Source: a virus (lineage: Duplodnaviria; Heunggongvirae; Uroviricota; Caudoviricetes). Taken from it: a stretch of 7,329 nt of DNA. The stretch lies in the IMG/VR virus record IMGVR_UViG_2681813205_000003; one strand, written 5' to 3'. Positions 553-7,329 of this stretch are shown here, piece by piece (position 1 is the first letter of the stretch; each line of letters begins with the position of its first letter). The position numbers and the translations under genes were made by a program. Below the pieces are notes generated by a model. It ran no database searches, was not told the DNA's origin, and saw only the letters and a program-made list of their open reading frames with translations.

Positions 553-1353
553 TTAACCGCGCTTCGCCTTCTGCGTCGCGGTGGTTTTTCGTGTTGCAGG
601 CTTCCGCGTTGTCTTTTTACTTTTGCTGCTTTCGTCCTGCGCCTGCTGTGCGCTGGCGTCTTCTGATGCGCCTGCGGAATCGGCTTTTTTCAGGGCGCGG
701 GAAAGGGTTGCAATCTCGCGTTTCACACCTGCGTTCGGGTTCAGGTGCATTGCTTCGCGCAGCAGCTTCAGTGACAGGGCCATGCTGTCCGCATCACTCA
801 GACCACGACGGGCAAAGGCGCACGCCTTGCATAATTTGGCGCGCACTTCGTCCGGCATGTCCTGGTTGGCGACAATTTCCCAAAGTGTGTCCAGTGGTTC
901 GATAAAGGCGGATAAATCCGCGTCGGCATCCGTCCCGGCCTGCGTCAGTACCGGGTTGCAGATTTCTTCGGTCAGTACCGTGGCTGCAGTACGTCCAAAG
1001 TTATCCGGCATGATGAGGTTGTGACGGACCACATATGCACCAATACGCAGCGCCAGCGGAAGATCGCCGCAGTCAATCGCCCACACCATCAGCGTGGCAA
1101 TCACTTCATCCTGCTGCCCGCCGTCAGCCTCCAGCGTTCCCTCAATCCAGCCGGAAAAGTCCGGCAATAACTCTTTTTTGATGGCGGCTTTCGCGCTTCT
1201 GGCCTGTACGCCCTTAAGCCGGGCCTGTGCCAGACGCAGACGATACAGCACCTCTTCATGCGCGGTACGCGCGGCGTGGTCCACGCCTTCATTCGCCCGG
1301 CCTGCGCGCTGTGCCATCACGTTCTGCCAGTGTTGCTGTGCAGGAGTAATCAT
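553..1353 (-). CDS. M: Terminase small (endonuclease) subunit, P2 gpM-like
   Basis: 266-aa ORF from ATG at 1353 to TAA at 553-555 (complement), with GGAGAG upstream. The translation (MITPAQQHWQNVMAQRAG...EVLYRLRLAQARLKGV...IATLMVWAIDCGDLPLALRIGAYVVRHNLIMPDNFGRTAATVLTEE...) fits the P2 gpM family as I recall it, and it sits between N and L as in P2. It ends in a low-complexity basic tail (KSKKTTRKPATRKTTATQKAKRG). Confidence 0.85.
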   Translation of the reverse strand: MITPAQQHWQNVMAQRAGRANEGVDHAARTAHEEVLYRLRLAQARLKGVQARSAKAAIKKELLPDFSGWIEGTLEADGGQQDEVIATLMVWAIDCGDLPLALRIGAYVVRHNLIMPDNFGRTAATVLTEEICNPVLTQAGTDADADLSAFIEPLDTLWEIVANQDMPDEVRAKLCKACAFARRGLSDADSMALSLKLLREAMHLNPNAGVKREIATLSRALKKADSAGASEDASAQQAQDESSKSKKTTRKPATRKTTATQKAKRG

Positions 1354-3465: not shown

Positions 3466-5217
3466 ATGATTCAGGACGCTTTTGTGCGCCAGCGTGCGCG
3501 GCAACTTTACTGGCAGGGTTATCCGCCCGCAGAAATATCACGTCTGATGGGAATAAACCCGAACACGATTTATGCGTGGAAAAAACGCGACCAGTGGGAT
3601 GAAACGCCACCCGTGCAGCGTGTCACGCAGTCCATCGATGCGCGCCTCATCCAGCTTACTGAAAAACAGAATAAAACAGGCGGTGACTTTAAGGAAATAG
3701 ACCTGCTGACCCGGCAGCTTAAAAAACTGCATGATGGCCAGCCGGATGCGACGGCCACAGGAAAGAAAGGCCGGGCGAAAAAACTCAAAAATCATTTCAC
3801 GCCGGAACAGATTGCCGCACTGCGGGAAAAAATCATCAGCAGGCTGGAGTGGCATCAGCGGGGCTGGTTTGACTCCCTGACCCTTTGCAGGGAAGCCGGG
3901 ATACGTAACAGGATGATCCTGAAATCCCGACAGATTGGGGCGACCTGGTATTTTGCACAGGAAGCACTGCTGATGGCGCTGCGTGACGATGTGGCGCAAC
4001 CTTACCAGCGTAACCAGATTTTTTTGTCTGCGTCGCGTCGTCAGGCGTTCCAGTTTAAAAGCATTATTCAGAAGGCCGCGGCTGAAGTTGATGTGGAGCT
4101 GAAAGGGGGCGATAAAATCATCCTCTCCAACGGCGCAGAGCTGCATTTTCTCGGCACTTCTGCTGCGTCGGCACAGTCCTATACGGGCAATTTTTATTTT
4201 GATGAATTTTTCTGGGTCAGTCGCTTTGCTGAACTGCGCAAGGTGGCTGGCGCTATGGCAACCCTCAGCGGACTGCGGCGCACCTACTTCTCCACGCCAT
4301 CCACCGAAACGCACGAGGCATACGCCTACTGGAATGGCGACCGCTGGAACGAGAAAAAGGCCTCGCATAAACGCCAGCGTTTTTCTGTGGACTGGAAAAC
4401 GCTGCATAACGGGCTTATCTGCCCTGACCGGACGTGGCGGCAAATTGTCACGCTGGAAGATGTGGTTAATCACGGCTGGAAACACACCGATATCGACGAA
4501 ATTCGTGATGAAAACACCGAAGACGAGTTCCTCAATCTCTATATGTGTGAGTTTGTCCGCGAAGGGGAATCGGCATTTAACCTGAATATCCTGATTGGCT
4601 GCGGTGTTGACGGATACGACGACTGGAAAGACTGGAAACCTTTTGCTCCCCGACCGATGGGGAATCGTCCGGTATGGATTGGGTATGACGCAAACGGCAG
4701 TAGTGGCAACGGCGACAGCGGCGCTGTGTCCGTTGTGGTTCCTCCGGCTGTTCCTGGTGGCCGTTTTCGAACGGTGGAGACTCGACGCGTTCAGGGGCTG
4801 GAGTTTGAAGAGCAGGCCAGAGTCATTGAAGAGTTCACGTATCGCTACAACGTGGAACACATCGGCATTGATGTGACGGGCGGGAACGGGGAGGCTGTTT
4901 ATCAGATAGTGAAGCGGTTTTTCCCTGCTGCTATTCCGTACACCTTCACGCTGTCATCAAAACGGTCGCTGGTACTGAAAATGCTGCAAATAATGCGTGC
5001 CGGGCGGTGGGAATACGATCGCGCCGAACGCGAGCTGGTCGCGGCCTTTAACGCCGTGCGTAAGGTGAAAACACCGGGCGGCTTTATCACTTACGAAACG
5101 GACCGAGCGAGGGGGATCAGCCACGGCGACCTTGCGTGGGCAACCATGCTTGCTGTCATTAACGAACCGATTGGCGGCGAAGGAGAAAACGAGCGTTTCA
5201 CGGTTATGGAGTTCTGA
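3466..5217 (+). CDS. P: Terminase large (ATPase) subunit, P2 gpP-like
   Basis: 583-aa ORF with a G-rich ribosome-binding site (cagggggagcaATG). N-terminal HTH-like segment (YPPAEISRLMGINPNTIYAWKKR), deviant Walker A-like KSRQIGATWYFAQ and Walker B-like FYFDEFFW, all typical of P2-type terminase ATPase subunits as I recall them. Its stop overlaps the start of the portal gene. Confidence 0.9.
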   Translation: MIQDAFVRQRARQLYWQGYPPAEISRLMGINPNTIYAWKKRDQWDETPPVQRVTQSIDARLIQLTEKQNKTGGDFKEIDLLTRQLKKLHDGQPDATATGKKGRAKKLKNHFTPEQIAALREKIISRLEWHQRGWFDSLTLCREAGIRNRMILKSRQIGATWYFAQEALLMALRDDVAQPYQRNQIFLSASRRQAFQFKSIIQKAAAEVDVELKGGDKIILSNGAELHFLGTSAASAQSYTGNFYFDEFFWVSRFAELRKVAGAMATLSGLRRTYFSTPSTETHEAYAYWNGDRWNEKKASHKRQRFSVDWKTLHNGLICPDRTWRQIVTLEDVVNHGWKHTDIDEIRDENTEDEFLNLYMCEFVREGESAFNLNILIGCGVDGYDDWKDWKPFAPRPMGNRPVWIGYDANGSSGNGDSGAVSVVVPPAVPGGRFRTVETRRVQGLEFEEQARVIEEFTYRYNVEHIGIDVTGGNGEAVYQIVKRFFPAAIPYTFTLSSKRSLVLKMLQIMRAGRWEYDRAERELVAAFNAVRKVKTPGGFITYETDRARGISHGDLAWATMLAVINEPIGGEGENERFTVMEF

Positions 5218-6263
5218 TGAGCAGAAAAAATAAAAAAGTGCGCATGAGTTCACGCATTGATCTCGCTGATGCGCTCAGGAAAGAATCATCGCTCAGTGCA
5301 TTCACATTTGATGGTCCTTATCGCCTGACCGGGCATGACCTGCTGGATAATATGTACTGTGCTGATAACGGGCGGTGGTATGAAACCCCGGTGGACTGGT
5401 ACGGTCTGGCAAGAGCTGCCCGGCAAACGTCCTGGCATCAGTCTGCGCTTTACTTTAAGCGCAATGTATTACTCGGTTGCTACATCCCGCACCCGTTGCT
5501 TTCCCGGCAGGATTTCTCGGCGCTGGCGCTGGACTGGTTTGTGTTCGGTAACGCATTCCTTGAGCTTCGAAGCAATATGCTCGGCGAACCGCTTAAATTA
5601 CGGCACGCCCTGGCGAAATACATGCGACGCGGAAGCGATCTTGAATCATGGTGGTATGTGCAGGATGGCAAGGGCGCGTTCCAGTTTCGCCCTGGCAAAG
5701 TGTGCCACCTGATGAATCCGGACATTAACCAGGAAATCTACGGCATGCCGGAATATCTTGGCGCATTACTCTCGGCCAGCCTGTCTCATTCGGCGGACAT
5801 GTTCAGAAAACTGTACTACGACAACGGATCCCACGCCGGGTGCATCATCTACATCGGTGCAGCGCAGGTAAACCGCGAAAGCATGGACTCCCTGAAGGAA
5901 ACGCTACAGGGGGCACGTGGTGGTGGTGCGTTTAAAAACGTGCTCATTCATGCGCCCAACGGGGGCAAAGAGGGGGTGCAAATTTTGCCGTTCCAGCAGA
6001 TCACCGCAAAGGATGAGTTCATGAATGTTAAGGCGGCATCCCGTGATGATGTGCTGGCTTCGCACCGCGTTCCGCCGCAACTGATGGGGGCGATGCCGGG
6101 CGAAAAAAGTGCGTTTGGTGATGTGGAGAAGGCAGCGCGGGTTTACGCAATTAACGAGCTGATGCCTGTCATGGAGGCCATGAAGCACATCAATGACTGG
6201 CTTGGTGAAGAGGTGATCCGTTTTAATTCTTATGCTCTTCTTGATGAAAAAACAGCCCCGTGA
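5217..6263 (+). CDS. Q: Portal protein (capsid portal vertex), P2 gpQ-like
   Basis: 348-aa ORF starting at the ATG in the TGATG overlap with the P stop (5215-5219). The translation fits my recollection of P2 gpQ / PBSX-type portal proteins, and P followed by Q matches P2 order. It ends at TGA 6261-6263, inside the loop of the downstream terminator hairpin. Confidence 0.9.
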   Translation: MSRKNKKVRMSSRIDLADALRKESSLSAFTFDGPYRLTGHDLLDNMYCADNGRWYETPVDWYGLARAARQTSWHQSALYFKRNVLLGCYIPHPLLSRQDFSALALDWFVFGNAFLELRSNMLGEPLKLRHALAKYMRRGSDLESWWYVQDGKGAFQFRPGKVCHLMNPDINQEIYGMPEYLGALLSASLSHSADMFRKLYYDNGSHAGCIIYIGAAQVNRESMDSLKETLQGARGGGAFKNVLIHAPNGGKEGVQILPFQQITAKDEFMNVKAASRDDVLASHRVPPQLMGAMPGEKSAFGDVEKAARVYAINELMPVMEAMKHINDWLGEEVIRFNSYALLDEKTAP

Positions 6264-6280
6264 TGGGGCTGTCCTTTTTA
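6245..6280. terminator. Bidirectional intrinsic terminator shared by the convergent Q gene and the 6278..6802 ORF
   Basis: Stem acagcccc (6252-6259) / ggggctgt (6265-6272), 8 bp, with a 5-nt loop gtgat. It is followed on plus by ccttttta (T5) and preceded on plus by gaaaaaa (6245-6251), which gives a U-run after the same hairpin on the minus strand. The stop codons of both convergent genes abut or overlap the structure. Confidence 0.7.
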
Positions 6281-6802
6281 CCAGAGTTGAACCATTTTCT
6301 GGGTGCCGTCAGGCTTGAGATTATCAATTTCAGAGAGAACGTAATATTGGATGGCTTCACAAACGGTGGTGTATGGTGAATTACCTTCTTTAAGTGGCAC
6401 GATATTATTATTAACGCGAACCTGTATTTCATCGTTATACATTGCGATCGAAAGAGGAGTATGCACGAACGCGACTTCGCCAGGTGTGTCGTCAACCACT
6501 GTCTCAATGCTGAAAATCAGTTTTCGCTCATCATTGCCGCCCCTTGCTTTGGGGGTGGCGGCAGGAATCTGAGATAAAGGCATTCTGCGAAACCCTTCAG
6601 TTGTTTCCAGTCCGCATGAAACGTAATGCTGGCGATTACCGTCGCTATCCGTCCATGTCTGTGATGGCAGCTCCAGAGAGATTTCATAAGCATCAACAAT
6701 TCCCTGGGCAAGGTGTACAAGCGGGGTCAGATCTTCATTGCGGCGAAAACTTTCCTTTACCTGCTCTCGTTTTTCTCGTAACTGCTTGTAATTAATGACC
6801 AT
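6278..6802 (-). CDS. Hypothetical protein of unknown function (174 aa); candidate accessory/cargo gene of the prophage
   Basis: Minus-strand ORF. I favour the ATG at 6802 (MVINYKQLREKREQVKESFRRNEDLTPLVH...) because of a strong GGAGG 7 nt upstream (aatggaggctgttttATG); the ORF-track start at 6841 is a GTG. It ends at TAA (complement of 6278-6280) inside the bidirectional terminator. I recognise no family and see no Walker, HEPN or nuclease motif. Hand counts of 60-nt blocks give about 35-52% GC here versus about 55-65% in the structural genes. Confidence 0.6.
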   Translation of the reverse strand: MVINYKQLREKREQVKESFRRNEDLTPLVHLAQGIVDAYEISLELPSQTWTDSDGNRQHYVSCGLETTEGFRRMPLSQIPAATPKARGGNDERKLIFSIETVVDDTPGEVAFVHTPLSIAMYNDEIQVRVNNNIVPLKEGNSPYTTVCEAIQYYVLSEIDNLKPDGTQKMVQLW

Positions 6803-6904
6803 AAAACAGCCTCCATTGATTTCTTTGCTCGTATTTTGCACTTATGAAGTGTGGTCGGCAAGGTGCTGCATCACTGACGCGCTTCGCTTGTCTGCTGCTT
6901 CGCC

Positions 6905-6927
6905 GGGGCATAAAAAATTTATGCCCC
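6905..6927. repeat. Perfect 10-bp-arm inverted repeat with 3-bp spacer (GGGGCATAAA-aaa-TTTATGCCCC)
   Basis: ggggcataaaaaatttatgcccc at 6905-6927 is exactly self-complementary. It lies about 100 bp upstream of the 6802 start codon (in minus-strand sense) and 18 nt downstream of a possible 42-codon small ORF. No T-run follows on either strand, so it is more likely a protein-binding palindrome or RNA hairpin than a canonical terminator. Confidence 0.5.
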
Positions 6928-7207
6928 GACTCTCCAGCTCCTGTATCAGTCAGATAATTTCACGACGCCTTCCAGCTTATTGCCATCATCGGCGGTCAAG
7001 CTCTTACGCCATCCCATCGCGCTGACTGCATGTTCCCGCCGCCCCAGTGCGATTTTGACGGCCTTACCTTTCATCCCATCAAATCAGAACCCCTTACGTC
7101 TTTTTCACGCTCAGCGTGAGCGATACAGCCATTCTGTTGTGTCGCTGCGACATCGTTCAGGGAGTGCTATTTACCCCCTGAAACGCGGGCTGTTCCCCCG
7201 TCACCTG

Positions 7208-7231
7208 CGCGCAGAAAAAGCGCGTTTTTTT
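7208..7231 (+). terminator. Weak candidate plus-strand intrinsic terminator (5-bp GC stem, 7-nt loop, T7 run)
   Basis: cgcgc (7208-7212) / gcgcg (7220-7224) with loop agaaaaa, followed by ttttttt (7225-7231). The stem is short, and no plus-strand gene is evident upstream, so function is uncertain. Confidence 0.3.
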
Positions 7232-7239
7232 GTGCACGC

Positions 7240-7258
7240 ACGGATCCTTGACGGATCC
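7240..7258. repeat. Tandem direct repeat ACGGATCC x2 at 11-bp spacing, each containing the GGATCC palindrome
   Basis: acggatcc at 7240-7247 and 7251-7258, separated by ttg. The one-helical-turn phasing suggests a paired protein-binding site. Confidence 0.45.
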
Positions 7259-7301
7259 AGCCGCAACGCGGGCCGGAAGGGCAAAAAGTCGTTCAAAAAA
7301 A

Positions 7302-7328
7302 TTGTGCAAATTTGTGCACTATTGTGCA
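7302..7328. repeat. Three phased direct repeats TTGTGCA at 10-bp spacing (iteron/operator-like); array may continue beyond the window
   Basis: ttgtgca at 7302-7308, 7312-7318 and 7322-7328. A fourth TGTGCA lies at 7231-7236, immediately after the T-run. The window ends inside the array. Confidence 0.5.
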
Positions 7329-7329
7329 T

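Follow-up and report, generated by a model that had tools for sequence, protein, structure and literature searches.

The four copies of TTGTGCA near one end of the window (i.e. the whole stretch of 7,329 nucleotides analysed here) are likely to be the sequence-specific flank of a cos site, a cosB-like array to which the terminase of a P88-like prophage of the P2 family would bind. All four copies lie on the plus strand, at 7230–7236, 7302–7308, 7312–7318 and 7322–7328, in a segment (7230–7329) that reads ttgtgcacgcACGGATCCttgACGGATCCagccgcaacgcgggccggaagggcaaaaagtcgttcaaaaaaaTTGTGCAaatTTGTGCActaTTGTGCAt; TRF reports a period-10 array at 7298–7328. The three copies at exact 10-bp intervals (7302–7328) had been recognized in a preliminary description of the window and are recovered by both motif search and TRF. 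The upstream TGTGCA reported at 7231–7236 is also present, and is in fact a full heptamer that starts one base earlier, at 7230. A search for the heptamer elsewhere, run within the window, places all four copies in 7230–7328. The number of copies is unremarkable in itself (1.76 expected; 23 of 200 shuffles reach four). In 1500 first-order Markov sequences of the window's length and composition, a phased triple of any 7-mer (three copies, period 9–12) never occurs (0/1500), and a 5-mer triple at period 10 occurs in ∼1%.

The array had been thought to be cut by the window edge. This is incorrect: relatives contain exactly three distal copies, and similarity ends right after the third. The sequences of P88, vB_EcoM-569R5 and P88_4B11 continue past the edge without a fourth copy and diverge from one another immediately 3′ of the third. 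Among P88-type IMG/VR loci, roughly at least 20 unrelated junction sequence families follow the triad.

The window comes from a P88-like prophage (Xuanwuvirus, P2 family), of which it represents the head-gene end. Its ORFs and annotated relatives give the head-gene order M-N-O / P-Q, as in P2. The features that bear on the argument are as follows.

553..1353, minus strand: gpM, terminase small subunit (Pfam PF05944 Phage_term_smal, E 1e-36), the candidate reader of the repeats
Part of the P2-family head region, from annotated relatives: capsid N and scaffold O
3466..5217, plus strand: gpP, terminase large subunit (583-aa ORF; same annotation at the syntenic position in P88 and close relatives)
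5217..6263, plus strand: gpQ, portal protein (348-aa ORF; portal annotation in relatives)
6278–6841, minus strand: cargo ORF of 187 aa without a Pfam match, between the portal gene and the cos block
7169..7328, plus strand: functional cos block (core, flanks and repeat array), delimited by helper–satellite sharing
7187..7205, plus strand: predicted 19-nt cohesive-end core, GGGCTGTTCCCCCGTCACC, which would correspond to cosN and is placed through its homology to P2, 186 and P4
7207..7231, plus strand: hairpin and T-run right after the core, a terminator-like site GCGCGCAGAAAAAGCGCGT and then the T-run
7230..7236, plus strand: proximal repeat TTGTGCA, with GTGCA at +27 from the core (7232); GTGCAC is palindromic
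7237..7291, plus strand: spacer of conserved length but not sequence, holding two copies of ACGGATCC
7292..7301, plus strand: A-tract TTCAAAAAAA, directly before the distal array
7302..7328, plus strand: distal triad, three TTGTGCA at 10-bp spacing, with GTGCA at +99, +109 and +119 (7304, 7314 and 7324), the candidate terminase recognition array

The gpM of the window is 36% identical to P2 gpM, and tblastn gives ∼45% identity between its gpQ and the portals of P2-type phages, Wphi and P2-like isolates among them. We found no solved structure for the PF05944 family of small terminases. A 460-bp block (6869–7329) is common to all P88-like (Xuanwuvirus) phages. Within it, the repeats lie downstream of Q and ahead of a variable cargo hotspot, which matches the position of cos in P2, where cos stands just past Q and the old/tin cargo region comes next. 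The region adjacent to cos is a known hotspot for gene exchange and defence genes (PMC9122126). In the closest relatives, the ParMR genes and gene A are farther out than the cos block. The compared stretches of the deposited P88-like records carry no annotated cos feature.

Several observations concern the genes around the block. P88 is without the ∼600-bp insert that holds the ORF at 6278–6841, so the Q side of cos can take up cargo as well. Small ORFs annotated as 'hypothetical protein' are called across the cos block, i.e. gp21 and gp22 in P88 (L002 3077–3368) and the minus-strand ORF at 7157–7309 in the window; they are probably spurious because the block has a non-coding conservation pattern. 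Between the cos hotspot and replication gene A, P88-like phages also carry plasmid partition genes of the ParM/ParR type (L002 4231–5506; L004 1–763; L008 7669–8944). Almost all the copies that we examined in E. coli genomes are chromosomal, and the ParM of the window's closest E. coli relative is a pseudogene.

The predicted core is identical to the P2 core GTGCTTTCCCCGCCTCGCC at 13 of 19 positions and is oriented as in P2 with respect to Q. The ES1 prophage of E. coli has the same layout and an intermediate core, GGGCTTTCCCCCCGTCACC, which matches P2 at 15 of 19 positions and the window at 17 of 19. The core is invariant (variant frequency 0.000) in 78 IMG/VR loci, which were themselves retrieved by its 14-nt 3′ part. 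We therefore take 7187–7205 as the putative cohesive-end core, with predicted cleavage positions deduced from sequence homology. In P2, 186 and P4, the order of elements is a 19-nt core, a hairpin with a T-run, ATGCA at +25, ∼70 bp of unrelated DNA and then the distal ATGCA copies, at +97, +107 and +118–120. An equivalent hairpin and T-run are present at the same place in P2, 186, P4 and ES1; phiT5282H and the satellite-like island described below keep the T-run, with a degenerate hairpin stem. The A-tract is kept in phiT5282H, the satellite-like island and Kp4871-3, and the corresponding position of the P2-type consensus is A-rich.

Other placements of the parts were considered and dropped. 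A core at about 7216–7234, obtained by aligning ccgtcacctgcgcgcag of the window with ccgtcagcgcgcag to the left of the P2 cos, was abandoned given the full architecture and the intermediate ES1 core. The break in the P88_4B11 record at 7283|7284 was not retained as a measured cos end, position 1 of that record having been set 'relative to reference genomes' (PMC6969025); sibling records of P88_4B11 start at the P2 cos. The triad was also considered as a minus-strand terminator with a 5-bp stem, but TGCA is palindromic, a third copy would be left unexplained and P2-type arrays have no T-run.

The same architecture appears in ten lineages, i.e. the window, P2, 186, P4, phiT5282H, ES1, the ETEC6334 island, Kp4871-3, YenM_31.17 and 813R9. 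In these, RTGCR is present at +25/27, +97/99, +107/109 and +116–120 (positions from the core end). In every one of them (10/10), the first distal copy starts 72 bp after the proximal one, and the spacer sequences are unrelated. The lineages fall into the following types: (i) GTGCA with a +2 offset (+27, +99, +109 and +119) in the window, phiT5282H (Enterobacter) and the ETEC6334 island; (ii) GTGCA with a degenerate array in the ES1 prophage (+27 and +99, then GCGCA and TTGCA in register); (iii) ATGCA in P2, 186, P4 and E. coli 813R9 (+25, +97, +107 and +119/120); (iv) ATGCA in Yersinia YenM_31.17 (+25, +97, +107 and +116); and (v) GTGCA with a P2-like core in Klebsiella Kp4871-3 (+25, +34, +97 and +107, with TTGCA at +117).

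No TGCA array was seen in relatives from Pseudomonas, Burkholderia, Aeromonas and Ralstonia (Dobby, KS14, LPM4 and YO140_2), which were scanned without a located cos, nor in one of the two Klebsiella relatives (ST11-OXA245phi3.1), scanned in the same way. A scan of 596 Gb of genome contigs for GTGCAN5GTGCAN5GTGCA returned random matches in unrelated bacteria only, the 15 specified bases being too few for such a search. Burkholderia phage KS14 (L300) has a different feature ∼1000–1110 bp downstream of Q, i.e. four iteron-like copies of AACCGGGG(A/T)TTTG, a few hundred bases from a gene for a replication initiation protein; these copies are unrelated to the TGCA arrays.

Sequence constraint on the repeats was assessed in two sets of loci. 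The P2-type set comprises 76 loci downstream of an identical P2 core, which were grouped into 48 families whose spacers share <30% of 8-mers. Homology among these families stops at +29. Beyond that point, RTGCA nonetheless recurs at fixed positions, starting at +96–98 in 38 families, +106–108 in 34 and +117–120 in 16, in addition to +25 in 43. At least two TGCA are present in +89..+130 in 42/48 families versus 0–1/48 in each of six control windows. Furthermore, the anchored P2-type consensus cATGCAAAtTcATGCA matches tGTGCAAATTTGTGCA of the window beyond the pentamer.

The P88-type set comprises 78 IMG/VR loci with a near-identical portal, and variant frequencies were calculated from 69 distinct sequences. 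Rather than being absent or unphased in related elements, the triad is kept in 76 of the 78 loci, 69 of them with GTGCA three times. Variant frequency per site is 0.004 in the A-tract, 0.009 in the proximal GTGCA and 0.017 in the GTGCA bases of the array; the bases between the copies and the spacer both reach 0.062. In one of the two exceptions, IS1 is inserted just past the core; in the other, the triad has been deleted.

Some individual records depart from this pattern. In IMG/VR locus L063, an IS1-like end (GGTAATGACTCCAACTTATTGATAGTG, identified by eye) is inserted 3 bp past the predicted core, which presumably inactivates cos in that prophage. In IMG/VR locus L033, a deletion from the equivalent of ∼7268 takes out the A-tract and the triad in full, together with the last part of the spacer, and fuses the spacer to cargo DNA; this locus is a candidate packaging-defective prophage. 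The virion-derived P88_4B11 (NC_049391, L003 3310–3325; window 7185–7194) differs inside the core, where 5 bp are deleted and a T is replaced by C; the difference may be genuine or may have arisen during assembly at the DNA ends.

Satellites delimit the functional unit further. P4 and other satellites have packaging as the sole thing in common with their helper. The array stands in the cos region and is shared with such satellites, and a packaging role therefore fits the repeats. Among 75 P4-like loci, 72 have the motif at +25/+97/+107/+120, including relatives with only 63–65% Psu identity. The array of P4-like satellites follows the psu stop codon, and their variable hotspot lies on the other side, right after 'GCGCGCA' and the core. 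Because that hotspot begins on the core's other side, nearly all the conserved cos sequence must lie on the array side. The sole spacing exception in the 75 loci is L377, where a 6-bp tandem duplication of GGCACA gives 78 bp instead of 72.

A second kind of element shares the block. The ETEC6334 island of E. coli (NZ_CP122604, ∼4124121–4131944; L294 2158–9630) is located beside hpt/can. It encodes an integrase, an 889-aa Toprim primase, an Ogr/Delta zinc finger protein, a 423-aa homologue of the P2-family major capsid protein with an extra N-terminal ∼130 aa, and a 236-aa ORF without a Pfam match. We found no portal, terminase, psu or sid gene in this island. It has only 7169–7328 in common with the window, at 80% identity. 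The shared block consists of the core, the T-run, GTGCACGCAC, an unrelated spacer in the 72-bp register without ACGGATCC, the A-tract and three copies of TTGTGCA. Sharing of the block around an unrelated spacer delimits the functional unit and indicates that the ACGGATCC pair is dispensable. The island may represent a kind of satellite separate from P4, one that has its own capsid gene and P88-like phages as helpers, and it is possibly active. The cos block (7169–7328) is present in 1152 of 5426 complete E. coli genomes.

The ACGGATCC pair deserves separate mention because the preliminary description listed it together with the TTGTGCA copies. Its two copies are indeed 11 bp apart, at 7240–7247 and 7251–7258, and can form a GGATCC-N5-GGATCC hairpin (z = −2.8). 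A third, unrelated copy is present at 5824 inside the portal gene. The pair is, however, mostly kept in close P88-type relatives only, where variants break the hairpin without compensation, and it is missing from all the ATGCA-type elements, P2, 186 and P4 among them, as well as from phiT5282H, ES1 and the satellite-like island. Of the two repeat types, only TTGTGCA thus retains a place in a conserved device; the ACGGATCC pair is a lineage-specific part of the spacer and possibly a small local duplication.

Taken together, the motif occurs in multiple phased copies, all on the same side of the predicted nicking site and at a constant distance from it, and is under selection, as is expected of a cosB-like array. 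The position past Q, the homologue of the 19-nt core and the sharing between helper and satellite are likewise what a P2-family cos should display. We propose the following mechanism, in part by analogy with other small terminases: (i) a gpM oligomer would most likely bind the three distal copies cooperatively on one face of the helix; (ii) gpM or the terminase would also contact the proximal copy, which would require the 72-bp spacer to loop or wrap; and (iii) the complex would position gpP to nick the core, 25–27 bp from the proximal copy. The array would then be the P2-family counterpart of lambda cosB in function. By the same analogy, gpM is probably the reader of the repeats. A phage-encoded reader is favoured because the A/G letter of the motif differs by lineage and the small terminases of the window and P2 have diverged so far. 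Since 72 bp corresponds to about seven turns at 10.3 bp/turn and the array has a period of 10 bp, we infer that all copies lie on a single face of DNA that is wrapped or slightly overwound. P2 terminase is reported to favour supercoiled circular monomers, a preference that would be compatible with a looped recognition complex.

Published work on P2 and P4 bears on how much of this flank is needed. A P2 cosmid with longer cos flanks was transduced ∼2000-fold better than one with short flanks, a confounded comparison that is suggestive only (PMC9594776). As reported in later papers, the conserved or required P2/P4 cos is a 55-bp region (Ziermann & Calendar 1990 as cited in PMC9122126, PMC9594776 and PMC3931495). 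This region takes in the proximal copy and excludes the distal triad, so the triad may be stimulatory, enhancing packaging rather than being essential to it. The weak points of a recognition array are that the third distal copy is present in only 16/48 P2-type families and that the ES1 array is degenerate (GTGCA, GCGCA and TTGCA).

The binder could also be a host architectural protein rather than gpM. We consider it unlikely that a host nucleoid protein (IHF, Fis or CRP type) binds or bends the DNA at the repeats to shape cos and that the terminase reads the core only. Host factors are involved in lambda cos function, with IHF site I1 inside lambda cosB; the A-tract here precedes the array, the 10-bp phasing suits bent DNA and TGTGCA is, by eye, loosely like a CRP half-site. 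However, the motif is ATGCA in P2, 186 and P4 but GTGCA in the P88 type, all of them in E. coli, which points to a phage-specific reader. No match to the IHF consensus WATCAANNNNTTR is seen by eye, and P2-type arrays are without the TGTG of the CRP site. Inspection by eye for CRP (TGTGA-N6-TCACA), IHF (WATCAANNNNTTR) and the Ogr/Delta late-promoter dyad (TGT-N12-ACA) gave no conserved match. The array might instead be a recombination site or hotspot for the exchange of cargo (defence) cassettes, which would explain the homology break at its 3′ edge: similarity ends exactly after the third copy in 76 P88-type loci, with ∼20 or more unrelated continuations, and cos-adjacent gene exchange is known (PMC9122126). 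We regard this as improbable since the break is not constant, falling at +29 in the P2 type (i.e. before the spacer and array) and on the core's other side in P4-like satellites. An exchange site needs no fixed 72-bp or core distance, and no recombinase is associated.

It is very improbable that the repeats serve as an operator or promoter element for the adjacent cargo genes. The third ATGCA of P2 does overlap the −35 element of the old promoter, and the P2 array occupies about −28 to −54 relative to the mapped old–tin transcript starts, but there is no sigma-70-like promoter in 6800–7329 of the window. The sequence after the array is variable and often opens with a terminator-like hairpin and T-run, of the kind expected where a leftward cargo gene ends. 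In P4-like elements, the array follows the stop codon of psu, and its distance is fixed to cos, not to a cargo gene. We give hardly any credence to a parC centromere for a ParR-like protein. Type II centromeres do consist of phased direct repeats, and P88, P88_4B11 and the closest E. coli relative have ParM/ParR homologues ∼0.5–2 kb farther downstream. Yet the array is not upstream of parM, being situated beyond parR and variable cargo genes; it is also present where no ParMR is annotated in the compared stretch (phiT5282H, the ES1 prophage and the ETEC6334 island), and it has homologous ATGCA arrays in P2, 186 and P4. There is no further TGTGCA cluster near parMR, and the region upstream of parM is without TGTGCA. 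An iteron-type origin was rejected because no initiator gene is adjacent, the replication endonuclease gene A being >1.7 kb off beyond cargo genes in the closest relatives, and because P4 and the island keep the array beside unrelated genes; the P2 origin is inside gene A. The general idea of the preliminary description, i.e. phased sites on one face for cooperative protein binding, has strong comparative support. Among the proteins that it listed, only a packaging protein agrees with the data; the repressor or Cox operator, replication-initiator and partition readings lack support, given the absence of a promoter-like site and the presence of the array in lineages without annotated ParMR.

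A terminase recognition array at cos would have several implications. A cos flanked by recognition sequences is expected, and a P88-like cos in the window is ordinary. Beyond this, we tentatively raise the possibility, which we hold to be doubtful, that the RTGCA array with its fixed 72-bp geometry is what sets the specificity of enterobacterial P2-family terminases, a 'missing cosB' that has so far gone undescribed. The ATGCA/GTGCA and core variants would, in that case, define packaging-compatibility groups that decide satellite–helper pairing, one satellite being the capsid-gene island distinct from P4. The proximal-plus-triad geometry does not appear in the later papers that describe the 55-bp cos (PMC9122126, PMC9594776 and PMC3931495), the primary 1990 paper apart, and its novelty is uncertain. 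P2 and P4 are the classic helper–satellite pair and are increasingly used for cosmid and antimicrobial delivery particles, and the literature covered here gives no definition of what a P2-family terminase recognizes in cos past the 19-nt ends. A proximal site and a distal triad at fixed spacing offer a concrete, mutable target and predict which flanks are needed in a high-efficiency cosmid. The ATGCA/GTGCA and core type also suggests itself as a simple sequence marker of helper–satellite compatibility, one that could likewise be used to find cos in the ∼20% of E. coli genomes with P88-type elements.

The closest known systems are the cos sites of P2, 186 and P4. The window has in common with these (i) the position past Q beside a cargo hotspot, (ii) a homologous C-rich 19-nt core, (iii) the hairpin with a T-run, (iv) RTGCA at +25/27 with a distal array 72 bp on, and (v) sharing between helper and satellite. 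It differs from P2 at 6 of 19 core positions, has GTGCA (TTGTGCA) in place of ATGCA, and its sites are 2 bp farther out. The P88-type spacer is conserved within the type and holds the ACGGATCC pair, and the small terminase is 36% identical. P2, 186 and P4 have 19-nt 5′ cohesive ends, while cleavage in the P88-like phages is predicted here from homology to them.

Other packaging and partition systems show more distant similarity. Lambda cosB consists of the gpNu1 sites R3, R2 and R1 and the IHF site I1, beside cosN. As is well established, it also has short phased sites on one side of the nick, a near site that is parted from the others by bending DNA, and a role in anchoring the terminase so that its large subunit can nick. 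By contrast, its motifs are unrelated to those here (R sites of 16 bp compared with 5–7 bp for RTGCA), the small terminase here belongs to a different family (PF05944), and no IHF site is recognizable. The pac boxes of the SPP1/SF6 type, also from established knowledge, resemble the array in having phased short repeats and A-tracts that are wrapped by an oligomeric small terminase, but these phages use headful packaging without defined cohesive ends, and their proteins and motifs are unrelated. The parC sites of R1 and pSK41 are likewise arrays of phased direct repeats, and ParM/ParR genes are nearby in P88-like phages; the array described here nevertheless has the wrong position relative to parM and is found in elements without annotated ParMR.
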